Assembly (NCBI GenBank): GCA_965200295.1
Contig: OZ241347.1
Coordinates: forward strand, 2,615,272 to 2,679,271
Reading direction: 5' to 3'
DNA: 64,000 nt
Source of the DNA: Gammaproteobacteria bacterium
Lineage (GTDB): Bacteria; Pseudomonadota; Gammaproteobacteria; Eutrophobiales; Eutrophobiaceae
The notes under the pieces were generated by a model. It made no database searches, was not told where the DNA came from, and was given only the letters and a program-made list of their open reading frames with translations. Positions 6,163 through 57,816 of the stretch are shown piece by piece (the stretch's first letter is position 1; each line of letters opens with the position of its first letter). The translations under genes were made by a program, and so were the position numbers.

Positions 6163-6444
6163 ATGTTCTACGTTAAGCTGACGCTGGCCCTGTGCATTGT
6201 CTTGGCCGGGCTGGCGTTTCATGTCCGTAACGCACAGCCGGTGGTTATTGATTTCTATCTGGCCAGCTATGAAATACCCATGTCCCTGCTTGTCGCCGTT
6301 GCTCTGCTTATCGGCGCCCTCCTGGGGGTCTTAGCGAGCCTGCCCGCCCGCTTGAAACTGCAACGCGACAAGGCCAGACTTGGCAGGGAACTCAAAAAGA
6401 TTCAGCCTCAAGGGCAGGATCCATCCGTAGATGATGCAGATTAA
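6163..6444 (+). CDS. lapA: lipopolysaccharide assembly protein LapA-like (DUF1049) small inner-membrane protein
   Basis: internal ATG at 6163 (MFYVKLTLALC...); two TM helices; position after ihfB typical of lapA/yciS. Confidence 0.65.
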   Translation: MFYVKLTLALCIVLAGLAFHVRNAQPVVIDFYLASYEIPMSLLVAVALLIGALLGVLASLPARLKLQRDKARLGRELKKIQPQGQDPSVDDAD

Positions 6445-9500: not shown

Positions 9501-10034
9501 GAAGTAGGGTTTGGCCTGTACATGAACCTGCTGGAACGGGCCGTGGCTTCGCTCAAGGCCGGGCGCCAACCGGAACTGGACCGCCCGCTGGACCACGGCA
9601 CGGAAATAGACCTGCATGTCCCCGCGCTGATACCGGCGGATTACCTGCCCGACGTACACACCCGGCTGGTCATGTACAAGCGCATCGCCGGGGCCGATGC
9701 CGAGCGCGCGCTGTGGGACCTGCAGGAAGAATGTATAGACCGCTTCGGCCTGCTGCCGGAGGCGCTCAGGAATCTGTTCCGCATCGCCCAACTCAAGCAA
9801 GGCGCCCAAGCCCTGGGGATACGCAAGATTGACTTAGCCGCCAAGGGCGGCCGCATACAGTTTGACGAGAACGCAGAGTTCGACCGGGTAAGGCTGATCA
9901 AACTGATCCAGGCTCACCCCGGCCGATACAAATTCGCCCAGGGCGGCAAACTCAGCATCAACCACGAGCTCGCCGACGCCGCCGCGCGCTTCAGTTTTCT
10001 TGAAGGTTTTTTAGGCGAACTAGCCCAACCTTAA
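6576..10034 (+). CDS. mfd: transcription-repair coupling factor
   Basis: 1152 aa; UvrB-homology N-terminus; DEAD/DEAH helicase motifs (GDSGFGKTEVA, DEEHRFG); TRG/TRCF C-terminus. Confidence 0.95.
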   Translation: MSVSPLQPVVPVTARERVVWEGLPGCGKALALATAARERDSLFVVIAADQAGAQRLMEELAFFNSPGSGLPLRSFPDWETLPYDRFSPYQDIVSERLATLVELRAMRAGILVVAVSTLMQRLPPAAYLHAHSLMLRAGQVLDTDNFRQELEHNGYRSVSQVMEHGDVAVRGSIIDIYPMGADTPFRLDLLDNEIDSIRTFDAETQRSLQQMRELRVLPAREVPLTAAAIDLFRSNWRQRFAGNPGNNPVYNDVSNGIAPAGIEYYLPLFYDHTSGLKDYFPANPTMVPDEGVYAAAQAFHELAQTRYEQGQHDSERPLLAPAELIYSPLQLFELLAPYPQIHLGATGLDSGAVKTVRYHATAPQKYPVNARAQDPLALLRAFMQEFDGRMLLVAESLGRRETILELFQAEKTRPSPCRDWDEFRAGNTRFGLTVAPLERGVTLARTGIAIISETQLFGERVQQRRLRKKARHLTDSIVNNLTELSIGAPVVHEEHGVGRYQGLVTLTVNELDTEFICLEYDQGDKLYVPVTALDRVSRFVGADAEQAPLHRLGSGHWLKAKQKALKRVYDVAAELLALHARRAAQQGHEFRVDNNAYQAFAQDFPFEETPGQAEAIAKVLEDMRAQTPMDRLICGDSGFGKTEVAMRAAFIAVENHKQVAVLAPTTLLAQQHYRNFSDRFADWPVRLAALSRFVSRKDQTAICADLNTGKIDIVIGTHKLLQDGLAFHNLGLIIIDEEHRFGVRQKEKLKSLRAQVDVLTLTATPIPRTLNLALSDLQSLSIIATPPSRRLPIKIFIREWDEVWLAEAMLRELKRGGQVYFVHNEISSIEKTANEVARLAPDARLRIAHGQMPEQQLEQVMLDFYHQRFNVLVCTTIIETGIDVPSANTIIINRADKFGLAQLYQLRGRVGRSHHRAYAYLVKPDRGAVSDSAARRFEAMAALEELGTGFTLATHDMEIRGVGEILGDEQSGHVQEVGFGLYMNLLERAVASLKAGRQPELDRPLDHGTEIDLHVPALIPADYLPDVHTRLVMYKRIAGADAERALWDLQEECIDRFGLLPEALRNLFRIAQLKQGAQALGIRKIDLAAKGGRIQFDENAEFDRVRLIKLIQAHPGRYKFAQGGKLSINHELADAAARFSFLEGFLGELAQP

Positions 10035-10042
10035 AGAAAATA

Positions 10043-10123
10043 TCAGTCAATCTTTAATACGCCGTAAAGCAGGACAGCCACATAAAAGGCTACACTTGCC
10101 GTCAGGGCTATAAAGGCAATCAT
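10043..10123 (-). CDS. small hydrophobic peptide (26 aa, MIAFIALTASVAFYVAVLLYGVLKID), copy 1
   Basis: ATG preceded by AGGAAA 5 nt upstream; single predicted TM helix; tandem paralog of the next peptide. Confidence 0.4.
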   Translation of the reverse strand: MIAFIALTASVAFYVAVLLYGVLKID

Positions 10124-10158
10124 ATTTTTCCTGCATGCTTCATATTACAGCGTGTCAA

Positions 10159-10236
10159 TCAAATTGTCAGTGCGCCGTAAAGCAGAACACCAACAAAAAA
10201 GACTGCACATGCTGTCAATGCAATAAATGCCATCAT
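10159..10236 (-). CDS. small hydrophobic peptide (25 aa, MMAFIALTACAVFFVGVLLYGALTI), copy 2
   Basis: ATG preceded by GAGAGGTGG; paralog of copy 1 (about 60% identical) with the conserved core AFIALTA...LLYG. Confidence 0.4.
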   Translation of the reverse strand: MMAFIALTACAVFFVGVLLYGALTI

Positions 10237-10387
10237 GTCTTGCCCACCTCTCTGATATGTTTTTGAATGCGTAGAAAAAGTACTAAATTGGCGCATCCCA
10301 ACATGGAAAGAAGCGCCACACCCGCCCAAAAAACCTCATTGATATTGTCAGACAGGTACAAACTCACCAGCCCGCTTATTATAAGGG

Positions 10388-10417
10388 AACCTCTAAAAAT
10401 GCCCTCCGTGGCATTTT
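10388..10417. repeat. left piece of a palindromic MITE-like element (cctctaaaaatgccctccgtggcatttt) interrupted by the IS110 element
   Basis: the right arm stops after ggcatttt; the missing tagag... resumes at 12204. Confidence 0.7.
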
Positions 10418-12203
10418 GCTATGTAACTTAATTATACCACTCTGTCATTAGGGCGCGCGCGGGTGGGTCTGCACAATGTGAGACCGTGAAGGGCGCCGGC
10501 GTTGCGGCGTGGCTCGCTCTGGCGTATGAGGTGGCCCCGCGTTGGCCTGTGGCCGTGAGGGAGCGTTGCGGCGACGCTGGCAGGTTGACCGGGGGATGTC
10601 AGGCGGCTTCGGGCATGTCAGGGGCTCTGTTGGGGGTGGGGTAGCCATATTTCTGTAGCATTTTGACCCAGCGCGGGGCATTGCGTTTGACCATGAGGGC
10701 CTCGTAGTCGGTGTGCGGGTCCTGGTAGGGCTGGCCGGTAATGAGCATGCGGTAGAGGGTACGCAGCAGTTTGTGTGCGGTGGCGACGGTGGCACGTTTG
10801 TAGCCGCGGCGCACGGTGAGGGCTTTATGGTAGCCTTGGAACTGGCAGTGGTGGGTGCGAGCGGCGCCGTGGGCGCACTCGATGAGCAGGGTGCGCAGGT
10901 GCGGGTTGCCCTGTCGGGTTCGGCCGTGGCGGCGTTTGCCGGCGCTTTCGTTGTTGCCGGGGCACAGGCCGGCCCAGGCGGCGCAGTGGCGGGCGGTGGG
11001 GAAGACCTTCACATCGGGGCCGAGTTCGATGAGCAGCGCGCGTGCGGCGGCGTGGTCGATGCCCGGCAGGGTCATCAGCAGGTCGAGTTGGGCCTGGTAG
11101 GGGGCGAGGTGTTGCCGGATGAAGGCATCGTACTGGGCGATACGGGCGTTGGCGTTGTCGAAGGCGGCGAGTTGGTCTTGGAGGACGAAGCGGGCCTCGG
11201 GGCGCAGGGTGGCGCTGAGTGCGTCGCCCAGGGCTGCCAGTCGGGGACGGACATGGCCGGAGAGGGTGGGCAGGATAGCTGCCGGGGTCAGTCCGGCGAC
11301 CAGGCCGTCGAGGATACGGCGACCGTTGACGCCGAACAGGTCTGAGAGGACTCCGCCGACCCGGAGACCGGCACCGTCGAGGCATTGATGGATGCGGGTC
11401 CGCAGGGTGGCGCGCAGGCGCACCACCTTGTGGCGTTGCCGTGACACCTTGCGCAGGGCGCGAAAGTCGGCGGGCGGCACGAAGCTGGGGCGGCACAGCC
11501 CGAACTGGCAGATACGCGCCAGCCACAGGCTGTCGGCGATGTCGGTCTTACGACCTTTGAGCTGCTTGACGTGCTGGGCATGCACTAAGAGGGGTTCGAT
11601 GCCGGCGCTCTCTAAGGCCTCGAAGACCACCTCCCAATAGATGCCCGTAGCTTCCATCACGGCGGCGCTGACCCGGTGCTCAAGCAGCCAGCCGGTCAGC
11701 TCGCGCAGGCCACTGGGCAGGGCGTTGAAGGTGCGGGTGTGAGTCTCGGCCGCCACGCCGGACTGTGCCAGACGCACGCTGGCAGTGATTTGCATCTTGT
11801 GTACGTCCAGACCCGCCGCGCGGGCGTGGATGACGTGTAAGGTATCAGTGTGTATAGTGTCAGGCATAACGCGTCCTCCGAAGTAAGTGCAAGTGTAGTC
11901 AGGGGCAAGCGCGGGCGGTCAACGGTTAGCAGGCTCGTTTCCGGGTGGGAAACGGCGCATTTTGCTATGCGTCCTCGACGACCTGCGTCGGGTACAAGGC
12001 GGGGCACGATGCCGTTGACCGGGAACAGTTTAGAGACGGGCTTATCAAGCACCGTAAAAAAGAGCGTTCTCGTTTCCCGCGCCTGCCCCGATAGTGTGCA
12101 TCAGGATGAGGCGTTAGCCAACGTCGGGGCTGCGGGGTGCCCGTACCCCCGGCGTTTCTCAGTTACATACCGGCGGGGTGTGCAGCGCTCTGATCATGAA
12201 GGT
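10418..12203 (-). mobile_element. IS110-family insertion sequence (~1.79 kb, no terminal inverted repeats) inserted into a palindromic repeat element
   Basis: boundaries inferred from the split repeat element (10388-10417 and 12204-12322); one internal DEDD-transposase gene. Confidence 0.7.
10599..11867 (-). CDS. IS110-family transposase (DEDD N-terminal domain plus transposase_20 C-terminal domain)
   Basis: 422 aa; GLDVHK motif near the N-terminus; typical IS110/IS1111 architecture. Confidence 0.9.
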   Translation of the reverse strand: MPDTIHTDTLHVIHARAAGLDVHKMQITASVRLAQSGVAAETHTRTFNALPSGLRELTGWLLEHRVSAAVMEATGIYWEVVFEALESAGIEPLLVHAQHVKQLKGRKTDIADSLWLARICQFGLCRPSFVPPADFRALRKVSRQRHKVVRLRATLRTRIHQCLDGAGLRVGGVLSDLFGVNGRRILDGLVAGLTPAAILPTLSGHVRPRLAALGDALSATLRPEARFVLQDQLAAFDNANARIAQYDAFIRQHLAPYQAQLDLLMTLPGIDHAAARALLIELGPDVKVFPTARHCAAWAGLCPGNNESAGKRRHGRTRQGNPHLRTLLIECAHGAARTHHCQFQGYHKALTVRRGYKRATVATAHKLLRTLYRMLITGQPYQDPHTDYEALMVKRNAPRWVKMLQKYGYPTPNRAPDMPEAA

Positions 12204-12322
12204 TTAGAGACGGAAACGAAAAAATGTGATTTTTCGTTTCCTTCATTTTCAAACACTTACGTGCTTAAAAATGGCAGCATGTCCCTATGCTGCACGGCCA
12301 CCTCTAATTTTTAGAGGTGGCC
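12204..12322. repeat. remainder of the long (five-hairpin) composite palindromic element, reverse orientation, ending in the gccacctctaatttttagaggtggc hairpin
   Basis: reverse complement matches the long copies at 38385-38526 and 51573-51720 almost base for base. Confidence 0.75.
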
Positions 12323-12377: not shown

Positions 12378-13748
12378 ATGATTGGCATATTGCAAATGCT
12401 GCTGGCGTTCATCGTGGCGCTGGGAGTCCTGATCACGTTCCATGAGTTCGGCCACTTCTGGGTGGCTCGACGTTGTAACGTCAAGGTCCTGCAATTTGCG
12501 GTGGGCTTCGGGCGGCCGTTGTGGCGGCGCAAGTTCGGCGCTGATGACACCGAATTTGTCATTGGCATGGTGCCGTTGGGCGGCTACGTGAGAATGCTGG
12601 ATGAACGCGAGGCGCCGGTGTCGGCAGCCGAGCAGGGCCGGGCCTTTAACAACAAATCGCTGGGGCAACGATTCGCCATTGTTGCCGCCGGCCCCATTTT
12701 CAATTTCATCTTTGCCATCCTGGCGTACTGGCTGGTCTTCATAATTGGCATTACCGGGCTCAAGCCGGTGCTGGGTTCGGTGCAGGACGGCAAGCCGGTG
12801 GCGCAGTCCGGTTTGCAGGCGGGCGATGAGATTATTGCCATCGACGGGCAGGCGACGCCGACCTGGAATACCGCCTTGGAATATCTGGTGGCCGGCGTGG
12901 TCGAAGGCGATACTGCGGCGCTACGGGTACGCGACGGGCGCGGCGCCGAGCGGGCGCTGACGCTGGACCTGGGCGCCATTTCTATCGACGCAATGGCCGC
13001 GGGCAACCTGCTGGACTTGCTGGGTTTCGAGCCGGCGCGCCCGCGCGCGCCGGCGACGCTGGGGCAGGTCAGCTACCAGGGCGCGGCCTGGTGGGGCGGT
13101 CTGCGTGAGGCTGATGAAATCGTGGCCGTTGACGGCGTGCCCGTGCAGGGTTGGCAGCACTGGGTTGAGCTGATCAGGGCGGCGCCTGATACGCCTATGA
13201 CTGTCACCATAGCCAGAGACGGCGCCACCATAGACATGGTAGTCACGCCCGAGGCAAAGACCAGTGAGCAGGGCGAACGCATCGGCTTTATCGGGGTCGG
13301 TCTCGACCCTGCGGCCGGTATGGATGACTCCCTGTTGGCACGCGAAGCCTATCCCTGGCATCAGGCGGCATGGAAAGGAGTAGTTAAAACCATTGATATG
13401 TCTGTTATGACCCTGCAGATATTAGGGCGCATGATTACCGGTCAGGCCTCCCTGAAGAACCTCAGCGGCCCGGTCAGCATTGCCCAGTACGCAGGACAGA
13501 CCGCGCAACTGGGTATAGTTGCATTCCTGGGTTTCCTGGCGCTGGTCAGCATCAGCCTGGGGATTTTGAATCTGCTGCCGATTCCCATGCTCGACGGCGG
13601 TCACCTGTGTTACTATCTGGTAGAGTTTGTCAAAGGCAGCCCGGTGTCGGACGCGGTGCAACTGCTGGCCCAGCGCGTGGGGCTGGTGCTGTTGTTCAGC
13701 CTGATGGCGCTGGCGATTTACAATGACGTCCTGAGACTGGTCGGTTAA
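12378..13748 (+). CDS. rseP: sigma-E regulator site-2 protease RseP (zinc metalloprotease)
   Basis: HEFGH zinc motif at the N-terminus; PDZ domains; C-terminal LDGG motif; AGGAG RBS. Confidence 0.9.
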   Translation: MIGILQMLLAFIVALGVLITFHEFGHFWVARRCNVKVLQFAVGFGRPLWRRKFGADDTEFVIGMVPLGGYVRMLDEREAPVSAAEQGRAFNNKSLGQRFAIVAAGPIFNFIFAILAYWLVFIIGITGLKPVLGSVQDGKPVAQSGLQAGDEIIAIDGQATPTWNTALEYLVAGVVEGDTAALRVRDGRGAERALTLDLGAISIDAMAAGNLLDLLGFEPARPRAPATLGQVSYQGAAWWGGLREADEIVAVDGVPVQGWQHWVELIRAAPDTPMTVTIARDGATIDMVVTPEAKTSEQGERIGFIGVGLDPAAGMDDSLLAREAYPWHQAAWKGVVKTIDMSVMTLQILGRMITGQASLKNLSGPVSIAQYAGQTAQLGIVAFLGFLALVSISLGILNLLPIPMLDGGHLCYYLVEFVKGSPVSDAVQLLAQRVGLVLLFSLMALAIYNDVLRLVG

Positions 13749-13772: not shown

Positions 13773-16700
13773 ATGGCGAGAGACAGGCAAAATCCTGCGT
13801 GGCTTGCTGCCTTGTTGGCGGCATCGCTGCTCATCCTGACCAGCCTGCCTGCCCAAGTCCTGGCGCAGCAGGTGCTCGTCAGCAACCTCGGCCAAGCCGA
13901 CTTCGCCACCGCCAGCCCCATTGCCAGCTTGCTTGGCGTGTTCGATCACGCCCAGCAATTCACCACTGGCAGCAACAGCGCAGGCTACTGGCTGAGCAGC
14001 GTCGAGATTGAATTCGGCCGACTCGACGCCGGCTTCCCTTTTTCGGTGTCGATTCGCACCAATGCCAGCGGCTCGCCGGGAACAGTGGTGGGTACACTGG
14101 CGAATCCCTCCTACACCGCGTTCACCACCGACACGGTGCTGAAGTTCACGGCGGCGGGCGACGGCATCGCCCTTGCGGCCAGCACGTCGTATTTCCTCGT
14201 CCTCGACGTCACTAGCGACTCCGGCAGCAACTTCGCCACTTGGCGGGTCACCACCTCAATGAGCGAGGACAGCGGCGGCGCCAGCGGCTGGAGCATCGCC
14301 GATCTGCACCGCTTACGGCAGAACGTGGCTGACGCTGCATGGGTCAACAACGTAGTCACCTCCACCCTCAAGATCCGCATCAACGGCTCGGCCGTCACCC
14401 TCCCCACGGTCACCATCGCCCGCGTTGCCACGCCGGTCACCGAAGGCGCGGCTGCCCGCTTCACCGTCAGCCGCACGGGCGCGACCACGGGGGCGTTGGC
14501 GGTGCAAGTGTCGGTGTCCGAGAACAGTGCTGGCGGGCAGAACTTCGTGGCGTCAACCAACGAAGGCGCTAAATCAGTCAGCATTCCTATGGGTTCCGCA
14601 TCGGCGGTCTATTCCGTGGCGACCGTGGGCGATGCCATCGACGAGCCGGACGGCGCGGTGACCGTGACGCTGGCGAGCGGTTCCGGCTATACCGTCGGCA
14701 GCCCGTCAACGGCGAGCGTGATGGTCAACGACGACGACCTGCCGGTTGTCACCATTACCAGCGGTGCATCGTCGGTGACGGAGGGCACGGCGGCAAGCTT
14801 CACGGTGACCCGCGCCGGTCTGACGACGGCGGCGCTGACGGTGAACGTCAATGTCGCGGATGTCGCGGGCAGCGATTTCGTGGCGTCGGACGACGAAGGC
14901 GCGGACACGGTGACGATCCAGGCGGGACAAGCCTCGGCAGCCTACAGCGTCGCCACCGTGGCGGACAGAGTGGTTGAGGCGAGTGGAAATGTGATAGTTA
15001 CCGTATCGACGGGCACGGGCTATACCGTCGGTAGTCCGCCATCCGCGAACGTGATGGTTAACGACGACGATACCGCTGCCGTGCTCATCAACGGCGCGGA
15101 CAGCAACATCACGCTTTCAGTCGGCGAGGACGACGGCACCGCCACCTACACCATCCGGCTCGACAGTCAGCCGAGCCACAATGTCACGGTCACAGTGAGT
15201 TCGGCCAGCGAAAACACAGCCACCGTGAACAAGGCGGGCGGCTCGGCCGGCGAGACGCAGACGCTCACCTTCACGCCGAGCGGCACCGGCGCGTGGAATG
15301 TCGCGCAGACCATCACTATAACCGGTGTCAACAACACTAGCGACGATGCCAACAACCGGCGCACTTCGCTCATCACCCACACGGCGGCTTCGAGCGACGC
15401 CAATTACAGCGGCATCACCCCCATCCCGACCGTCACAGTCACGGTGACCGACGACGACACGCCCGAGTTGACCGTGTCGGCACAGGGCGGCGTCACAACC
15501 GTCAACGAGAACGGCGCCGCCGCGACGATCATCGTCACCTCGAATATTCAAGTCGACGGCTCAATCGACTACGGCCAGCCGAGCGTGTCCACGGGCGGCG
15601 CCGTCAGTGCCGACGGAACGACTATTGCTGGCGGCAACACGAGCAACACCTATACCGTCAGCGCGAGCGACAACAACCGCGACGAGGCCGACTGGTCGAT
15701 CACCACCGGCATTGCCGCCGGCACTGGCTACACACTCGGCTCGCCGAGCGCCGTCATGCTCACTGTTCGCGACGACGACCCGACGGTCGTCTCGCTCGCT
15801 GGCGGTGGCCGCGTGTTCGAAGGCGAGGGGACGACATTCACGGTCACGCTTGGTCGCGACCTCGCCGCCGGCGAGATCATTGACGTGCCGCTGGCCATCA
15901 CCGGTGCTGGCATCACCCCGAGCGACTGGCGTTTGGCGCTTGCGAGCGGCATGGGTCTCAACACAGGCGTGACGCTGAATGGCGCCAACACAGCCACGCC
16001 GCAGCTTCGCTTCGCAGGCGCCGGCGCGCGCACGGCGACGCTGACGCTGACCGCCGAGGCGAGTAGCGGCGGCAAGACAATACGAGTGGAGCTAGGACCG
16101 GATGGCAGCGGCGCCAACGGGTTTGATCGCAGCGGTCTTGGCACCAACGTCGGCGGCGGCGCGGACCCGCACGCCACGGCTCTTCGAATCATGCTGGTGG
16201 TCACTGCCGATACCGTCGTCAACGACCGCGACTTCCTCGCTTTTGTGCGTGCCCCTGGCGAAACATCGGCATCCAGGCGGACTGAAGGCTCGCGTCTGAC
16301 GCTGTCCGTCCACCGTATCGCCTTCACGTCCGACAACAACAACCTGCACACGCCAGACGACTGGGGGTTCCGGCTCTGCTTCACCGGCGCCGCGACGCCC
16401 GGCGCGGACTTTTCGGTCAGCCACGGCGGCGGGCGCACATCGCTCGATCAAGAGGGCTGCACACGGACGAACAGCGCGGAGGACGGCACCGCGTTGCCCG
16501 CGCGACTGAGCGTCGCGCGCTTCTACATCAAGCTCTTGCACGACGATTTGGACGAGAGCGATGAGCGCGTTGTCGCGACCTTGACGCGAACGATTAACAC
16601 CGGGGTTTCCGGGCAAGGATTGAGTGAGTTTCGCTTCACCATCAGCGAGCCGCCCCTGATCGACAAGGTGCGCCACTACACCAGTGAAATTTGGCGCGGC

Positions 16701-19568
16701 TACGATCATGTCCTGCGTTGGCAGCGTGTGCTCTTTGCGCTCAGCGACGGCAGCGAAGGCGAAGGCCCGGCCATGACCGCAACCGAGGCGCAAGACTATG
16801 CGAATCGCGGCATGACCCGCTGGGCGCCAGTGGCGGCGGCGCTCTCACCGCTGCAGACGCAATCGGCAAGCCCACAGGGTGAGGGCAGCGAGGCAAGCTC
16901 ACAGGATGAGGATAGCGAGGCAAGCTCACAGGATGAGGATAGCGAGGCAAGCTCACAGGATGAGGATAGCGAGGCAAGCTCACAGGATGAGGATAGCGAG
17001 GCAAGCTCACAGGATGAGGATAGCGAGGCAAGCCCGCAGAGTGAGGGCAACGAGGTAACCCCGGATAGCGAGACCGAGGGTGAGGCGCCCGCAGACGATG
17101 ATGTGCAGGGTGACGCGCCTTCGGATAGCGAAGCGCCGGTCGAGCCGGTTGCAGCAGAGGACACGTTCGTGCCGGATGCCGCGCTGGTCGCGAACATCCG
17201 TGCCTGGCGCAGCGAGACCCAGCACGGTCAGGCGCATGTGGATCGGTGGACGCGGGTGCTGATCGCGTTCAAAGTAGAAACCGGTAGCCTCGCGCCGATG
17301 AGTGCGGCCGAGGCGCAGACATACCTCGACAAAGGCTGGACGCGCTGGGAACCCGTGGTGACGGCGCTTAAGTCGATGCAAGCTGACACGCAGCAAGCGG
17401 CCGCCTCGGAGCAGAACGACACGCAAGCGACTACCGAGCAAGACGAGGCGCCGCAAGCCACAGACGAGGAGAACGAACCCGCGCCCACAGAGCAGGACGA
17501 AGCGCCAGCGGCCGAGGACGAGCAGGACGAGCCCGTGACCATGGCACAGGGCGATGAACCCGCCCCCACCCCGGCATTGTCGGTCTCGGATGCGAGCGGC
17601 GCAGAAGGTTCGACCATAAAGTTCACCATCACGCTTGCCCCGGCCGCAACAGACACCGTGAGCGTGTGGGTGTCCACCAGAGAGTCGCAGCCGGTGTCCG
17701 CGCATAAGAACAGGGACTACCAGCACAACGGCGAGTGGCTGACGTTCAAGCCCGGCGAGACCCGGCAGCACCACCGGGTTTACACCCTTGACGATGCGCA
17801 CGACGACTCGGGAGAAACTTTCGAGCTGGTACTGTCACAGGCGCGTGGCGCGGTGATCGCCGATGCAGTAGGTGTGGGCACGATCATGAACGACGACCCA
17901 CTGCCGGCGGCCCACCTCGCACGGTTCGGACGCACCGTGGCCGAGCACGCGCTCGGCGGCATCGCCGGGCGCTTGGAGGCACCGCGCGCGCCGGGGCTGC
18001 GCGGTGTGTTTGCCGGCCGGGCATTCAGCGCGGCGCCGGGGAGTAAGACCGGCCACCGGCGGCGTAGCGGGGGGGGTACCGGCGCGCCGAACGGGCTCGA
18101 TGGCTTCCATACCCCCGGCGGGGGCGTCGGCGTGAACCCATCGTCGAGACGATCAGCCTTGGCGGGCGACCTCCATTCAGCCGTTGCTCAGTCACTCGAT
18201 GCCCAATCATTTGATACCCAGTCACCCGACGCTGGCGCCTCCATGACCGCGCGTGCAGTACTGTTAGGGTCGAGCTTCACGCTGACCCGGGCCGCCGACG
18301 GCGCCGGCGGCAGTCTGGCTTTCTGGGGCCGCGCCGCGCAAAGTCACTTTGACGGCGTTGACCGCGGCCACGGTACCGATGTGACTCTCAACGGTAAGGT
18401 CACCACCGCCATGCTGGGCGCCGACTACGCCCGGGGCGACTGGCTCGTCGGCCTGGCGCTGACCGAGACCGCGTCCACAGGCGGCTATAGCGCCGCCGCC
18501 GGTAATCCCTGTATGGGTGAGATCGGAGCCGGGGCTATGGCCGATACTATGGACAGCCCCCCGGAATTGTGCGCTACGGACGGCCCTGGCGCTGCGGCTG
18601 GTCTCGGTGCTACGGCAGGCCTGGGCGCCGGTGAGGTAGAGTCTTCCCTGACGGCCGTCATTCCCTACGCCACGCGCCGGGTCGCCGAGCGGCTGACATT
18701 GTGGGGCGCCACCGGCTATGGCCGAGGCGCAGTGACACTGACGCCGGGCGCCGGTGAAACCCTCACCGGCGACGCCCCCCTCAGTGCTGACACCGACTTT
18801 ACCCTGGCCGCGGTAGGCCTGCGCGGTGACCTGCTCGCTCCCGTCGGATTCGGGCCGGCGCTGGCGCTCACCTCCGATGCCCTGTGGACGCGTACGACCT
18901 CAGCGGGGACGCACGGCCTCCTGGCCTCAGCATCCGCCGTGACCCGGCTGCGGCTGGGTCTGGAGGGCAGCTGGGCGCTGGACTTTGCCGGCGCCCGGCG
19001 TGTTACGCCGACGCTGGCCGTCGGCGCCCGCCACGACGGTGGCGACGCCGAGACCGGCTTTGGTATTGAGCTTGGCGGTGGCGTGCAGTGGATCGAGCCG
19101 CGCCTCGGCCTGACGCTCGACATCTCGGCCCGCACGCTGCTGGCGCATGGAGATGACGACATCAAAGACCGGGGCGTCTCCGCGGCGCTGACCTTCGACC
19201 CGGCGCCGGGGACGCCCTTCGGCCCCCGGCTCAGCCTGCGCCAGGACTTCGGTGGGCCGGCTCAGGGCGGCCTTGATGCACTGTTCCGACCGGAGACGCC
19301 GCAGCCGCGGCACGGCGCTCATGACGCCGCCCGTTGGACGCTGGAGGCGGACTACGGCCTGCCCGCCTTGCAGGGGCGCTTCAGCGCCCGCCCGCTGGCC
19401 GGTATCGGACGCGCCGGCGGGGTGCAGGACTACCACCTCGGCTGGCAGTTGACGCCGGCGGCGGCGCACGCCCCCGACATCTCTTTCAGTGCACGCGCAG
19501 TGCGGCGTGTACCGGCGCGGGCCGCGGCTGAACATGGGATTGAACTCAGGCTCAACTGGCAGTGGTAG
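13773..19568 (+). CDS. giant (1931 aa) surface protein: signal peptide, N-terminal domain, five or more Calx-beta-like ~110-aa repeats, duplicated unknown domain, acidic 9-aa tandem tract, C-terminal autotransporter beta-barrel
   Basis: repeats ending in VNDDD with TEG...F.V.R motifs (Calx-beta-like); C-terminal ~300 aa with alternating beta-strand pattern ending LRLNWQW (type Va translocator signature). Confidence 0.8.
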   Translation: MARDRQNPAWLAALLAASLLILTSLPAQVLAQQVLVSNLGQADFATASPIASLLGVFDHAQQFTTGSNSAGYWLSSVEIEFGRLDAGFPFSVSIRTNASGSPGTVVGTLANPSYTAFTTDTVLKFTAAGDGIALAASTSYFLVLDVTSDSGSNFATWRVTTSMSEDSGGASGWSIADLHRLRQNVADAAWVNNVVTSTLKIRINGSAVTLPTVTIARVATPVTEGAAARFTVSRTGATTGALAVQVSVSENSAGGQNFVASTNEGAKSVSIPMGSASAVYSVATVGDAIDEPDGAVTVTLASGSGYTVGSPSTASVMVNDDDLPVVTITSGASSVTEGTAASFTVTRAGLTTAALTVNVNVADVAGSDFVASDDEGADTVTIQAGQASAAYSVATVADRVVEASGNVIVTVSTGTGYTVGSPPSANVMVNDDDTAAVLINGADSNITLSVGEDDGTATYTIRLDSQPSHNVTVTVSSASENTATVNKAGGSAGETQTLTFTPSGTGAWNVAQTITITGVNNTSDDANNRRTSLITHTAASSDANYSGITPIPTVTVTVTDDDTPELTVSAQGGVTTVNENGAAATIIVTSNIQVDGSIDYGQPSVSTGGAVSADGTTIAGGNTSNTYTVSASDNNRDEADWSITTGIAAGTGYTLGSPSAVMLTVRDDDPTVVSLAGGGRVFEGEGTTFTVTLGRDLAAGEIIDVPLAITGAGITPSDWRLALASGMGLNTGVTLNGANTATPQLRFAGAGARTATLTLTAEASSGGKTIRVELGPDGSGANGFDRSGLGTNVGGGADPHATALRIMLVVTADTVVNDRDFLAFVRAPGETSASRRTEGSRLTLSVHRIAFTSDNNNLHTPDDWGFRLCFTGAATPGADFSVSHGGGRTSLDQEGCTRTNSAEDGTALPARLSVARFYIKLLHDDLDESDERVVATLTRTINTGVSGQGLSEFRFTISEPPLIDKVRHYTSEIWRGYDHVLRWQRVLFALSDGSEGEGPAMTATEAQDYANRGMTRWAPVAAALSPLQTQSASPQGEGSEASSQDEDSEASSQDEDSEASSQDEDSEASSQDEDSEASSQDEDSEASPQSEGNEVTPDSETEGEAPADDDVQGDAPSDSEAPVEPVAAEDTFVPDAALVANIRAWRSETQHGQAHVDRWTRVLIAFKVETGSLAPMSAAEAQTYLDKGWTRWEPVVTALKSMQADTQQAAASEQNDTQATTEQDEAPQATDEENEPAPTEQDEAPAAEDEQDEPVTMAQGDEPAPTPALSVSDASGAEGSTIKFTITLAPAATDTVSVWVSTRESQPVSAHKNRDYQHNGEWLTFKPGETRQHHRVYTLDDAHDDSGETFELVLSQARGAVIADAVGVGTIMNDDPLPAAHLARFGRTVAEHALGGIAGRLEAPRAPGLRGVFAGRAFSAAPGSKTGHRRRSGGGTGAPNGLDGFHTPGGGVGVNPSSRRSALAGDLHSAVAQSLDAQSFDTQSPDAGASMTARAVLLGSSFTLTRAADGAGGSLAFWGRAAQSHFDGVDRGHGTDVTLNGKVTTAMLGADYARGDWLVGLALTETASTGGYSAAAGNPCMGEIGAGAMADTMDSPPELCATDGPGAAAGLGATAGLGAGEVESSLTAVIPYATRRVAERLTLWGATGYGRGAVTLTPGAGETLTGDAPLSADTDFTLAAVGLRGDLLAPVGFGPALALTSDALWTRTTSAGTHGLLASASAVTRLRLGLEGSWALDFAGARRVTPTLAVGARHDGGDAETGFGIELGGGVQWIEPRLGLTLDISARTLLAHGDDDIKDRGVSAALTFDPAPGTPFGPRLSLRQDFGGPAQGGLDALFRPETPQPRHGAHDAARWTLEADYGLPALQGRFSARPLAGIGRAGGVQDYHLGWQLTPAAAHAPDISFSARAVRRVPARAAAEHGIELRLNWQW
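16880..17040. repeat. perfect 27-bp tandem repeat x5 (caggatgaggatagcgaggcaagctca) encoding (SSQDEDSEA)n inside the giant gene
   Basis: seen directly; in-frame acidic low-complexity linker. Confidence 0.9.
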
Positions 19569-19663: not shown

Positions 19664-21982
19664 ATGTTAGTAGAAAGATTGAAAGCCTGCCTGATTTTGG
19701 CGGCGTTGTTTTTGCCTTGCGTGTCTGGCGGGCTTGTGGCGCAGGAATTTGTCATCGAGGATATCCGGGTCGAGGGCTTGCAGCGCCTGACTCCGGGCAC
19801 CGTATTTAACTACCTGCCGCTGGAAGTGGGCGATAAATTTAATCCGGAAGTGTCGTCCGAGGCGGTCAGCGCCTTGTTCAAAACCGGTTTTTTCGATGAC
19901 GTGCAACTGCAACGGGACGGCAATGTGCTGGTGCTGGTGCTCAGGGAGCGGGCGGCCATCGGCAGTATCGAGATCAGCGGCAACAAGGACATCAAGACCG
20001 AAGACCTGCTGGACGGGCTGAACCAGATCGGCTTTGCCGAAGGGCGAGTGTTTGACCAGTCGCAACTCGATGGCCTGGAACGGGAGTTGCGCCGCCAGTA
20101 TTTTTCCGCCGGTAAATACGCGGTAAACATCAATTCTGAGGTAACGCCGCTATCCAATAATCGGGTGGCGGTCGCCATCGACATTTCGGAAGGCAAGGCC
20201 GCGCGTATCAAGCAAATCAATATCGTTGGTAACCAGTCGTTTCGGGAAGGTGATTTGCTGGACCAGTTTGAGTTGTCCAAACCCACCCTGTTTTCGTTTT
20301 TTACCAAGGACGACCAGTATTCACGACAGAAGCTGTCCGGCGACCTGGAAACCCTGCGCTCGTTTTACCTGGACCGGGGTTACGTCAATTTCAGCATCGA
20401 TTCCACCCAGGTATCCATCACCCCCGACAAGAAAGATATTTACATCACCATCAATATCACCGAAGGCGGGCAATATACCATCTCCGGGGTGAAACTGGCG
20501 GGCGAGTTCATCCTGCCGGAAGCAAGCCTGTATAACCTCATCAGCGTCACCCGGGGCAGCCTGTTCTCGCGCAAGCAGGTGACCGATAGCAGCGAGCGTA
20601 TGACCGAGCGCTTAGGCGGTTCCGGTTACGCGTTTGCCAACGTCAATTCCATCCCCGACATCAATGAGGACGACAACACGGTAGAGGTCACGTTTTTTGT
20701 GGACCCGGGCAAGCGGGTGTATGTGAGGCGCATCAATTTTTCCGGCAACACCCGCACCCGGGACGAGGTGCTGCGTCGGGAAATGCGTCAGCATGAGGCC
20801 GGCTGGATTTCCACCCCCAAGGTGGAGCGCGGCAAGATCCGCTTGCAGCGGCTGGGCTTTTTCGAGGAAGTGAACGTGGAAACACCGGCCATCGCCGGTT
20901 CCGCCGACCAGGTTGACGTCGATTATACCGTTACCGAGAAGCCGTTCGGCAACTTTCTGGCGGGCCTGGGGTTTTCCCAGAACCAGGGGTTGATCTTCCA
21001 GACCAGCATCACTCAGGATAATTTTCTGGGTTCCGGCAAGCGCATACAGTTTGCCTTTAACAACAGCGACATCAATCGCCGCTTTGCCTTGGGCTACGTC
21101 AACCCCTACTACACCGTGGACGGGATCAGCCGCGGGTTTAACCTGAATTACCAGGAAACGGAGGCCTATGACGCCAACATCACCGCGTTCGATAGCCGGG
21201 TGATAGGGGCTGGTGTGAGTTTTGGCCTACCGGTGACGGAGTATAATTTCGTCAGCACCGCCTTCGGCTATGAAAATACGCGCCTGTCCGAAGATCGTTT
21301 CTTCGCCCAACAGGTGGTGGATTTTATTGAACGGGAAGGCAGCAAGTTCGATATTCTGCGTCTGTCTGCGGCGTTTTCCTACGACACGCGCAACCGGGCG
21401 ATATTGCCCACCCGCGGCGTGCAGCACCGCTTCAGTTCGGAGATATCCATACCGTCATTCGGTAATTCCCTGGAATTTTTCAAGGTAGGCTACCGCACTC
21501 AGTGGTATTATCCGGTATTGCGTGAATTCATTTTTACCGTAAAGGGAGATTTCGGCTATGGTGACGGTCTGTTCGGCACCGATGAACTGCCGTTCTTTGA
21601 GAACTTCTATGCTGGCGGCCCGCGTTCGGTGCGCGGCTACGAGGAAAATACTTTGGGTCCCAAGGATACGCCGGTGCGGGGCGGCACCCGGCGGCGGCCG
21701 CTGGGCGGCAATATCAAGGTGGTCGGCGGCGCCGAGATGATCTTTCCGCTGCCGTTTCTCAAGGACTTCAAGCAGGTCCGGTTTGCCGCATTTTTTGACG
21801 GCGGCAACGTGTATTCCAGCGATGAGTCGTTTGAATTCAGTGAGCTCAGGTACTCCACCGGCCTGAGCGGCATCTGGATCTCACCTTTTGGCCTGGTAAG
21901 TGTTAGTATAGCCAGACCCATTGGTGACAAGGCAGGTGATGAGACGCAACCGTTCCAGTTTACTTTTGGTTCAACTTTTTAG
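19664..21982 (+). CDS. bamA: outer membrane protein assembly factor BamA
   Basis: 772 aa; five POTRA repeats plus Omp85 barrel; C-terminal ...FQFTFGSTF. Confidence 0.95.
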   Translation: MLVERLKACLILAALFLPCVSGGLVAQEFVIEDIRVEGLQRLTPGTVFNYLPLEVGDKFNPEVSSEAVSALFKTGFFDDVQLQRDGNVLVLVLRERAAIGSIEISGNKDIKTEDLLDGLNQIGFAEGRVFDQSQLDGLERELRRQYFSAGKYAVNINSEVTPLSNNRVAVAIDISEGKAARIKQINIVGNQSFREGDLLDQFELSKPTLFSFFTKDDQYSRQKLSGDLETLRSFYLDRGYVNFSIDSTQVSITPDKKDIYITINITEGGQYTISGVKLAGEFILPEASLYNLISVTRGSLFSRKQVTDSSERMTERLGGSGYAFANVNSIPDINEDDNTVEVTFFVDPGKRVYVRRINFSGNTRTRDEVLRREMRQHEAGWISTPKVERGKIRLQRLGFFEEVNVETPAIAGSADQVDVDYTVTEKPFGNFLAGLGFSQNQGLIFQTSITQDNFLGSGKRIQFAFNNSDINRRFALGYVNPYYTVDGISRGFNLNYQETEAYDANITAFDSRVIGAGVSFGLPVTEYNFVSTAFGYENTRLSEDRFFAQQVVDFIEREGSKFDILRLSAAFSYDTRNRAILPTRGVQHRFSSEISIPSFGNSLEFFKVGYRTQWYYPVLREFIFTVKGDFGYGDGLFGTDELPFFENFYAGGPRSVRGYEENTLGPKDTPVRGGTRRRPLGGNIKVVGGAEMIFPLPFLKDFKQVRFAAFFDGGNVYSSDESFEFSELRYSTGLSGIWISPFGLVSVSIARPIGDKAGDETQPFQFTFGSTF

Positions 21983-33544: not shown

Positions 33545-33587
33545 GGCCACCTCTAAAAATGCCACGGAGGGCATTTTTAGAGGTTCC
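33545..33587. repeat. short palindromic element (ggccacctctaaaaatgccacggagggcatttttagaggttcc) between the divergent phrB and argC
   Basis: canonical 14-bp-arm form with a 7-nt loop. Confidence 0.8.
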
Positions 33588-38384: not shown

Positions 38385-38526
38385 GGCGCCTCTAAAAATT
38401 AGAGGCGCCCGTGCAGCATAAGGATATGCTGCCATTTTTAAGCACGTTAGTGCTTGAAAATGAAGGAAACGAAAAATCATACTTTTTCGTTTCCGTCCCT
38501 AAAAATGCCATGAATGGCATTTTTAG
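38385..38526. repeat. long composite palindromic element (five consecutive hairpins, ~142 bp), + orientation
   Basis: near-identical to 51573-51720 and to the reverse complement of 12204-12322. Confidence 0.85.
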
Positions 38527-42798: not shown

Positions 42799-42842
42799 GG
42801 GCGCCTCTAAAAATGCCACGGAAGGCATTTTTAGAGGTTGCC
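42799..42842. repeat. short palindromic element (gggcgcctctaaaaatgccacggaaggcatttttagaggttgcc)
   Basis: canonical form; lies between the pnt operon and the ATP-grasp gene. Confidence 0.8.
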
Positions 42843-51550: not shown

Positions 51551-51572
51551 CGGTGGGTCGCGTCCACTTGTG

Positions 51573-51720
51573 GGCACCTCTAAAAATTAGAGGTGGCCGT
51601 GCAGCATAGGGATATGCTGCCATTTTTAAGCACGTAAGTGATTGAAAATGAAGGAAACGGGAAATCGCACTTTTCCGTTTCCGTTTCTATAAATGCCACG
51701 GAGGGCATTTAAGAGGTTCC
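51573..51720. repeat. long composite palindromic element (five hairpins, 148 bp), + orientation
   Basis: near-identical to 38385-38526; terminal repeats cctctaaaaat / atttaagagg. Confidence 0.85.
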
Positions 51721-55498: not shown

Positions 55499-55570
55499 CT
55501 TTCTGGTAAGAAACACCTGAAATTGACCTCCCTGACACCTAAGCAGACACGGCACATCCATAATGCTGCG

Positions 55571-55598
55571 CGGGCGCCTCTAATTTTTAGAGGTGGCC
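55571..55598. repeat. short palindromic element (gggcgcctctaatttttagaggtggccc)
   Basis: minimal form; immediately 3-prime of the Rieske B1 gene. Confidence 0.75.
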
Positions 55599-57737: not shown

Positions 57738-57765
57738 TCTGTATCTTAAATTCACATCAGGGCGC
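57738..57765. promoter_or_regulatory. conserved 28-bp upstream box, copy B (aggtaacaaatctgtatcttaaattcac)
   Basis: ~86 nt upstream of the Rieske B2 start. Confidence 0.5.
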
Positions 57766-57767
57766 CT

Positions 57768-57816
57768 CTAAAAATGCCCTCCATGGCATTTTTAGAGGCG
57801 CCCTGATGTGATATGC
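57768..57816. repeat. short palindromic element (cagggcgcctctaaaaatgccctccatggcatttttagaggcgccctg)
   Basis: canonical form with extended GC clamp; between the divergent Rieske operon and the HDAC-like gene. Confidence 0.8.

Follow-up and report, generated by a model that had tools for sequence, protein, structure and literature searches.

The locus described here has its closest known counterparts in hok/mok (Hok/Sok), in type II toxin-antitoxin (TA) operons, in the small membrane proteins CydX, KdpF, AcrZ and MetS, and in class II holins or pinholins together with T4 Imm and SieB-like proteins. It lies in a stretch of 64,000 nucleotides (nt) from a Gammaproteobacteria bacterium (contig OZ241347.1), hereafter the window, and comprises two minus-strand genes, p26 and p25, for membrane mini-proteins of 26 and 25 amino acids (aa), next to the remnant of a partner gene that encodes a 76-aa protein with two transmembrane (TM) helices in related genomes. 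We put at roughly 0.8 the probability of the explanation as a whole, namely that p25 and p26 are diverged copies of the mini-gene of a two-gene membrane module of leaderless and translationally coupled design, orphaned here by a miniature inverted-repeat transposable element (MITE) and an IS110 insertion sequence (IS).

As in hok/mok, a small hydrophobic membrane peptide would depend for its translation on an upstream overlapping frame. In hok/mok, however, most of hok is covered by mok, which is read in another frame and does not encode a conserved membrane protein. In the module, the two frames share 1-4 nt, and purifying selection acts on the conserved 76-aa product of the upstream one; our locus yielded neither a Sok-like antisense RNA nor a fold-back mRNA element nor a HOK_GEF match. 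The module shares with type II TA operons a compact two-gene layout, an overlapping stop and start, variable contexts that are sometimes TA-rich islands, and occasional multi-copy occurrence, but both products are tiny integral membrane proteins, and neither a DNA-binding antitoxin domain, nor an enzymatic toxin fold, nor a match to a TA or defence model is present. With CydX, KdpF, AcrZ and MetS, the likeness is a single TM helix of 25-37 aa, co-transcribed and co-translated with the protein that it presumably binds; here, that protein is a 76-aa hairpin, with no sequence relationship to these systems and no oxidase, Kdp, efflux or transporter association. Finally, the partner resembles class II holins and pinholins, T4 Imm and SieB-like proteins in its two TM helices, short external loop and charged cytoplasmic ends. 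For SieB, the resemblance extends to a faint precomputed PF14163 label on two family members, a signal seen in 1-2 of hundreds (E ~0.002); for class II holins, no lysis cassette, endolysin neighbour or prophage context was found here, and no PHROG, phage-genome or viral-fold match. The design of the module, with a probably leaderless first cistron, a coupled mini-protein and a near-invariant 76-aa partner, is a variation among small membrane-protein systems that has not been described in them, and is not a new category.

Coding status of the two mini-genes

The argument turns on the following features of the window:
10043-10123, minus strand: p26, gene for a 26-aa single-pass membrane mini-protein (MIAFIALTASVAFYVAVLLYGVLKID), ATG to TGA, read 10123-10043
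10127-10132, minus strand: Shine-Dalgarno motif AGGAAA of p26, 3 nt (AAT) ahead of the ATG
10159-10236, minus strand: p25, gene for a 25-aa mini-protein (MMAFIALTACAVFFVGVLLYGALTI), ATGATG to TGA, read 10236-10159
10243-10252, minus strand: Shine-Dalgarno motif GAGAGGTGGG of p25, inside the last codons (..REVGKT) of the partner remnant
10233-10385, minus strand: 3' remnant of the 76-aa two-TM partner gene, codons 27-76 plus stop, its TGA overlapping the p25 ATG (ATGA)

p25 and p26 are intact paralogous open reading frames (ORFs) whose products are 68% identical; each peptide is one hydrophobic helix in which nearly all residues are hydrophobic, and the Shine-Dalgarno-like motifs ahead of the two are purine-rich. 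An earlier note on this DNA had described two paralogous minus-strand mini-ORFs of 26 and 25 aa, each a single helix with a well-spaced Shine-Dalgarno motif, in duplicated surrounding DNA placed at 10062-10130 and 10173-10243. These observations stand, at 10043-10123 and 10159-10236, with AGGAAA and GAGAGGTGGG as the motifs and with closely similar bounds for the duplication, a direct repeat of 83 nt at 75% identity (10049-10131 versus 10162-10244) reported by the repeat finder. No further copy of p25 or p26 occurs within the 64-kb window. The note had overlooked the partner remnant, the MITE end at 10386-10417 and the low GC content of the region: the cluster (~10000-10450) forms an island of ~41% GC between flanks of 60-70%, in a window of 59% overall, and the GC3 of the locus genes is 0.31-0.49 versus 0.72-0.82 for host genes.

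The two genes differ by 18 substitutions, distributed 3/6/9 over codon positions 1/2/3, with pS 0.52 (+/- ~0.11), pN 0.14 and dN/dS 0.18. All replacements are conservative (M/I, C/S, A/V, F/Y, G/A, T/K); when equally large sets of random mutations are drawn under the condition that the ORF stays open, only ~0.5% are as conservative. The sole alternative open frame of the pair gave pS 0.22 and pN 0.27, with no signal of constraint, and the opposite strand contains stops. The coding test on orthologues comprised 12 distinct orthologue or paralogue sequences, from genomes whose Mfd is 78-81% identical to that of the window. Pooled pN/pS was 0.26 in the peptide frame and 1.11 and 1.60 in the other two, minimal substitutions fell 15/13/40 over the codon positions, and the ATG start and the length of 25-26 codons were invariant. 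Mean pairwise identity was 78% within the ORF, 71% in the 45 nt upstream, which belong to the partner gene end, and 32% in the 45 nt past the stop; similarity among relatives stops at the mini-ORF stop codon. The earlier note had named an unconserved frame with substitutions scattered randomly over codon positions as the outcome that would count against it, and both the ratio of 0.26 and the 15/13/40 distribution point the other way. Because the frame is kept in relatives and substitutions are not random by codon position, we conclude from these comparisons that p25 and p26 are genuine protein-coding genes.

The two-gene membrane module

Exact look-ups of the window Mfd and of a 44-aa ORF starting with GTG (10233-10367, from the ORF list), which sits within the partner remnant, matched no record. 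A word-indexed protein search with three local ORFs returned only a 78-aa 'hypothetical protein' from three Gammaproteobacteria metagenome-assembled genomes (MAGs; loci L001-L003). These belong to the same species as the window (Mfd 99.6% identical), have no IS at the locus, and match the cluster except for a single synonymous substitution in p26. We also scanned species-representative genomes with a degenerate DNA pattern, built from the physicochemical features conserved between p25 and p26 (hydrophobic, NTN; small, KSN; Tyr/Phe, TWY). The seven matches were three true homologues (L005, L006 and L009, from other Gammaproteobacteria MAGs) and four chance TM-like sequences. In L005 and L009, an intact 76-aa gene (MTKLDELKERISFLSKLFFVIIGLFVLIISGLVSLYLSDIINELFWSGVALLFMLGCANLIVFLRIQKHLREVGEI) precedes a single 25-aa ORF, the TGA of the former overlapping the ATG of the latter. 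Since the upstream ORF is intact at 76 aa in these relatives, the 44-aa ORF of the window is the 3' remnant of the 76-aa gene. A large protein database yielded eleven close homologues of the 76-aa protein, and an ATGA-overlapping ORF of 25-26 aa was present in the contigs retrieved for seven of them (7/7), some of these loci lying away from mfd (L011/L012, L019) and one, L022, having a split 76-aa gene. Throughout the window's clade, each intact 76-aa gene is thus followed by an ATGA-overlapping mini-ORF. The relatives L005, L009, L011 and L013-L020 carry an intact partner with the N-terminus M-x-K-[IL]-D-E-x-K-E and a promoter abutting the ATG; the partner in the window has neither. p25 nonetheless keeps the coupled arrangement, its ATG overlapping the TGA of the remnant (ATGA) with GAGAGGTGGG ahead, and p26 is a secondary copy with a duplicated Shine-Dalgarno motif. 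In L006 and L021, both long-read, low-coverage assemblies, the 76-aa gene is frameshifted or prematurely stopped and the mini-ORF is intact, reflecting either sequencing error or true pseudogenisation.

The family extends far beyond this clade. Searched against 1.84 billion cluster representatives, a profile of the 76-aa protein retrieved 85 at E≤1e-3, and a collection of 5.8 billion sequences contains at least 600 family proteins; nearly all are 76 aa long, exactly so among the cluster representatives. Their source MAGs are labelled Campylobacterota, Nitratifractor, Methylococcales or Gammaproteobacteria, and their database entries are unnamed or bear inconsistent automatic labels. As an unbiased test of coupling, metagenome contigs were scanned with the N-terminal signature of the partner alone (M-x-K-[ILV]-D-E-h-K-E). 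Thirty-six ORFs of 70-82 aa start at this motif, 31 of which are two-TM family members, and all 31 have a coupled hydrophobic ORF of 24-37 aa at -4 to +9 nt from the stop, mostly through TAATG or TGATG; the five soluble chance matches have none (0/5). When the definition was made stricter, a coupled mini-ORF was found in 33/34 modules versus 7/170 other ORFs of at least 70 aa at the same loci (4%). We take as members of the module family those two-TM genes of 71-79 aa whose stop has a mini-ORF of 24-37 codons beginning -4 to +9 nt from it, the Shine-Dalgarno motif of the latter being inside the last codons of the former. Both genes appear constrained in distant subfamilies, the mini-ORF with a pooled pN/pS of 0.34 and the partner with one of 0.24, and a 29-aa mini-gene had already been called by independent public gene callers in L023-25 and L146-154. 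Taken together, these sequence comparisons indicate that the mini-gene belongs to a widespread two-gene membrane module that is absent from curated libraries.

The partner is laid out as a charged N-terminal helix (M-x-K-[IL]-D-E-x-K-E), two TM helices and a basic tail, and AlphaFold2 predicts two long helices, 3-36 and 39-74, with a pLDDT of 75. Common to the mini-proteins, which would be single-pass proteins of the inner membrane, is a TM helix with an aromatic-(G/S) pair at its end and a charged tail behind it (..MFYGVNKLSEA, ..LFYSVSKLSEE), a pattern that the window peptides fit (..LLYGALTI, ..LLYGVLKID). When the peptides and the partner family were scanned against Pfam, NCBIfam, PHROG and PADLOC, no model covered the family, and the library matches, among them DUF2721, DUF2663, SieB, SLATT, TsaT, MetS-like and COX14, were sub-threshold and inconsistent; in PDB and among viral models, searching by fold and by sequence returned only generic helical hairpins. 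tblastn of phages and plasmids with three family members gave no match, a peptide-based locus finder run on viral contigs and limited to exact 8-residue words confirmed nothing, and a literature search by concept and motif string retrieved nothing relevant to the module. No natural fusion of the two cistrons was found among longer database entries, which are mis-called starts or out-of-frame read-through. Next to the modules of L026 and L122 lie two-TM ORFs of 80-81 aa (MTLQERKDKADIIAKQSEVVNKKLF...EIEELKK) with the layout of the 76-aa family, of which they may be distant paralogues.

The two cistrons differ in their initiation signals. A match of at least 5/6 to TATAAT starts 11-13 nt ahead of the ATG of the 76-aa gene in 21/39 distinct modules, often as TGTATAAT or TGATATAAT. 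Shine-Dalgarno-like motifs stand ahead of the partner in 3/39 modules and ahead of the mini-ORF in 34/38, those of the mini-ORF lying within the last codons of the partner (..EIGEL = GAAATAGGAGAATTATAATG, ..EVGKI = GAGGTAGGAAAAATATGA). The C-terminus of the partner is conserved partly because its last codons hold this motif. From the spacing and motif statistics, the most likely arrangement is that the 76-aa gene is leaderless and that termination-reinitiation accounts for translation of the mini-gene, the second cistron. Synthesis of the 76-aa protein would use a leaderless mRNA that starts at the ATG, 5-7 nt past an (extended) -10 box, and ribosomes ending its translation would re-initiate on the start of the mini-protein (ATGA, TAATG or TGATG; -4 to +9 nt). 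Made together, the two proteins would assemble into a three-helix membrane unit. According to the positive-inside rule, the hairpin would be oriented N-in/C-in and the mini-protein N-out/C-in, and such opposite insertion orientations would explain why the cistrons are never fused.

Duplication and disruption at the window locus

Of the two copies in the window, p25 is the positional orthologue of the single copy of relatives; it preserves the ATGA junction, and the sequences nearest to it are those of L009, L022 and L005, at 8-9 nt differences. p26 is the extra, distal copy. The ancestral 3' junction (..ATTGACTGATAT) is retained in p26, which is 14-20 nt away from all other sequences and whose peptide is nearest to that of L019 (3 differences). 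The duplication unit takes in the last ~20 nt of the partner, which is why p26 has an AGGAAA Shine-Dalgarno motif of its own, a copy of the partner's last codons (compare ..GTAGGAAAAATATGA in orthologues). With a pS of 0.52, p25 and p26 have diverged from each other as far as the adjacent remnant has between species (0.45-0.66), suggesting that the duplication is old or that p26 was imported. Among 46 other modules, we found no convincing peptide-only duplication; it is seen in the window lineage only. The earlier note had called tandemly duplicated membrane peptides typical of type I toxin families or of small accessory subunits; in the present family, tandem duplication is not typical.

The disruption of the partner can be followed in these features:
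10386-10417, no strand assigned: MITE 3' end, element positions 119-150 (32 bp), running 10417-10386
10418-12202, minus strand: IS110-family element inside the MITE, transposase ORF 10599-11867
12203-12322, no strand assigned: MITE 5' part, element positions 1-120, running 12322-12203, outer flank rseP
10431-10439, minus strand: TGgTATAAT, box resembling an extended -10 element, 13 nt in from the IS 3' end, facing the remnant, p25 and p26, with no -35 match
9995-10040, no strand assigned: AT-rich inverted repeat of 14 bp just past the p26 stop, overlapping the mfd stop

In the IS-free strains of the same species, a 150-bp MITE-like repeat with terminal inverted repeats (GGCCACCTCTAAAAA.. / ..TTTTTAGAGGTTCC) and multiple hairpins sits in the 76-aa gene after codon 27, flanked by a 5-bp target duplication, CTTAT (L001 6403-6552). 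In the window, this MITE is itself split by an IS110 element, whose DEDD transposase matches NF033542 with 259.9 bits (cut-off 140) as well as PF01548 and PF02371. The insertion point is defined at about MITE position 118-120, and this fits the sequence-specific targeting of repeats reported for the IS110 family. The outer flank of the MITE 5' part is rseP (12378-13748) in the window and the 5' half of the partner plus csiV in the IS-free strains, and neither this 5' half (MTKLDELKERISFLSKLFFGIIGLFVL) nor its promoter was found anywhere in the 64-kb window. The sequences that border the two MITE halves on the outside derive from different loci, which implies a rearrangement, most simply, we infer, by recombination between two MITE or two IS copies. 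In the window, then, the MITE cut the partner after codon 27 and IS110 afterwards inserted into the MITE; recombination would have removed the promoter and the 5' half. The break of the partner appears recent, because the remnant still shows pN 0.07-0.08 against pS 0.45-0.49 towards L005 and L009.

p25 and p26 are accordingly orphaned second cistrons, either silent relics or genes transcribed from the IS-end TGgTATAAT, a candidate that could serve as their substitute promoter. With weak support (z = -1.8), the 9995-10040 inverted repeat could terminate the convergent transcripts. A leader-peptide or attenuator role for the mini-ORFs was discarded, only convergent mfd lying downstream, and so was the idea that they are part of the MITE or IS, whose boundaries leave the ORFs outside.

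Several further observations concern the elements and neighbours of the locus. In the IS-free strains, a chimeric 78-aa ORF (P0001; L001 6469-6705, also in L002 and L003) begins in the MITE and runs in frame into the remnant, so that the MITE insertion may have created a new partner N-terminus instead of a simple null allele. Dispersed MITE copies occur in the window at 51572-51720 and 38389-38526, with fragments at 33551-33587, 42802-42839, 57765-57800 and 55552-55598. In L022, an unrelated insertion of ~130 bp with inverted ends (CAGCCTGTCGGACTT...AAGTCCGACAGGCTG; ~6190-6330) splits the 76-aa gene at another codon, and the mini-ORF is intact. REP-like palindromic units (GGGGTCAGAGTAAAAATTCT..ACTCTGACCCC), sometimes in 2-3 copies, fill the spacer between mini-ORF and mfd in L005, L009, L013-16 and L022. 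Directly after rseP in the window, a 1931-aa ORF with a choice-of-anchor R domain (13773-19568) is followed by a 772-aa ORF (19664-21982).

Context, rival readings and significance

In the window's clade, the module stands at the end of aroA-cmk-rpsA-ihfB-lapA-mfd and faces a variable hotspot on the csiV side. This integration hotspot, between csiV and the 76-aa gene, was seen in L013-L018, L021 and L022 with cargo that varies between strains, even in one sample: an Eco57I-like methyltransferase (restriction-modification, R-M), SNF2 helicases, an IS1595 transposase, PDDEXK_4 and RHH/Phd-type antitoxins. Elsewhere, the module lies between assorted housekeeping-like genes, sometimes near Y1 (IS200-like) transposases, PIN, DUF4160, BrnT or HepT-MNT genes, and divergent whole modules occur in tandem at 5 loci. 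Clustering of neighbours revealed no conserved functional partner beyond the module itself. Because the module is self-contained, patchy, sometimes multi-copy, AT-rich relative to its host and at times found among toxin-antitoxin or defence genes, we lean towards an accessory membrane-acting module rather than a housekeeping subunit.

How such a module might act admits a more specific proposal, which we hold as a tentative minority view: the pair would be a membrane-acting toxin-antidote or abortive-infection system, the 76-aa protein being a holin-like effector and the mini-protein its stoichiometric inhibitor (or the reverse), with p25 and p26 as surviving antidotes. Its patchy spread across phyla and the tandem occurrence of divergent whole modules are consistent with this, as are the recurrence of an identical module where BrnT, PIN and HepT-MNT genes abound (two such contexts or more), the PIN, DUF4160 and Y1 transposase neighbours confirmed by Pfam, the position beside a variable R-M/defence hotspot in the window's clade, and the atypical codon composition. 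The partner was moreover interrupted twice independently (window lineage and L022) with the mini-ORF spared, extra dosage of the mini-protein only is tolerated, the ATGA/TAATG overlap recalls type II TA operons, and the partner has a class II holin-like layout. Yet the searches of PADLOC, PHROG, Pfam, NCBIfam, phages and plasmids gave no match, and similarity in fold to viral proteins did not reach significance. A DNA-binding antitoxin domain is missing from both proteins, many modules have housekeeping genes on either side, and the two genes experience comparable purifying selection and keep a stable synteny throughout a clade. A still more detailed and slightly more doubtful version holds that the module represents a new and widespread class of leaderless membrane pairs in which a holin-like effector is gated by a co-translated helix of 25-30 residues, as a toxin-antidote or anti-phage switch, the window being a decayed copy in which only duplicated antidotes are left.

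The readings offered by the earlier note fare less well. It had proposed tandem type I toxin genes (Ibs/Ldr/ShoB-like), which would be controlled by an antisense or overlapping small RNA (sRNA); small, strongly hydrophobic single-helix peptides in tandem suit that idea, and a marginal sigma-70-like site lies in the p25 3' end, upstream of p26. Against it, no Pfam or NCBIfam toxin model matched p25 or p26 at E up to 10 or ten diverse members at E up to 1, Rfam found no antitoxin RNA in the window region or at three orthologous loci, and matches to antisense promoters and terminators stayed at the level expected from shuffled sequence. The non-coding DNA past the stop is unconserved (32% identity), tandem peptide-only copies exist in this lineage only, and in 33/34 modules the mini-gene is a coupled second cistron with no structured leader of its own, rather than an independent one, so that we regard a type I system as highly improbable. 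Its other suggestion, a small accessory subunit, survives in part: there is an obligate operon partner, but it is a 76-aa protein and not a large enzyme or transporter complex. Taken to mean that the mini-proteins serve a large membrane enzyme or transporter whose genes lie elsewhere, in the manner of CydX, KdpF, AcrZ or MetS, the suggestion has only slightly better odds than the toxin genes. Size and single-helix architecture are typical of such subunits, and the peptides show weak sub-threshold similarity to MetS-like, to a cytochrome-oxidase small assembly protein and to COX14 (E 0.006-0.08), but these matches fall below curated cut-offs (best MetS_like, 16.1 bits versus 25) and differ between peptides, and no oxidase, Kdp, efflux or NSS transporter gene recurs as a neighbour, the sole invariant one being the 76-aa gene. 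The least credible alternative takes p25 and p26 for frames that happen to be open in AT-rich spacer or repeat DNA. Such DNA does favour hydrophobic codons, and a MITE and an IS flank the region; nevertheless, purifying selection is specific to the frame, start and length are kept, conservation is bounded by the stop codon, the mini-ORF occurs in 33/34 modules against 4% of controls, and the ORFs lie outside both elements with no other copies in the window.

The reading of p25 and p26 as orphaned copies of a coupled mini-gene also has points that weigh against it. At leaderless spacing, 18/39 modules have no TATAAT match of at least 5/6, and leaderless initiation is read solely from the distance between promoter and ATG. 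Complex formation is likewise deduced solely from obligate co-occurrence and coupling, with no natural fusion. The selection signal in p25 and p26 is mostly older than the break of the partner gene, and their expression may have been lost with the truncation of the partner and the disappearance of the native promoter; between the IS-borne -10 box and the genes, the retained MITE end contains a short hairpin and a T run. Both copies are present in the window species only, despite their deep divergence, which needs several losses or an import. Finally, the lean towards an accessory or selfish module draws on context, whereas many modules lie between housekeeping genes and the synteny with mfd is stable in the clade.

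For the window itself, the corrected annotation comprises p25 and p26 as real genes, a pseudogene remnant, a MITE and an IS, and the locus documents stepwise decay through nested mobile elements. Proteins of 25-26 aa fall below the length cut-off of most gene callers and are therefore systematically unannotated. With hundreds of copies in several bacterial lineages, the module provides small-protein and membrane biologists with a defined two-protein system and, as far as its sequence indicates, would be a natural example of leaderless initiation and re-initiation on one transcript.

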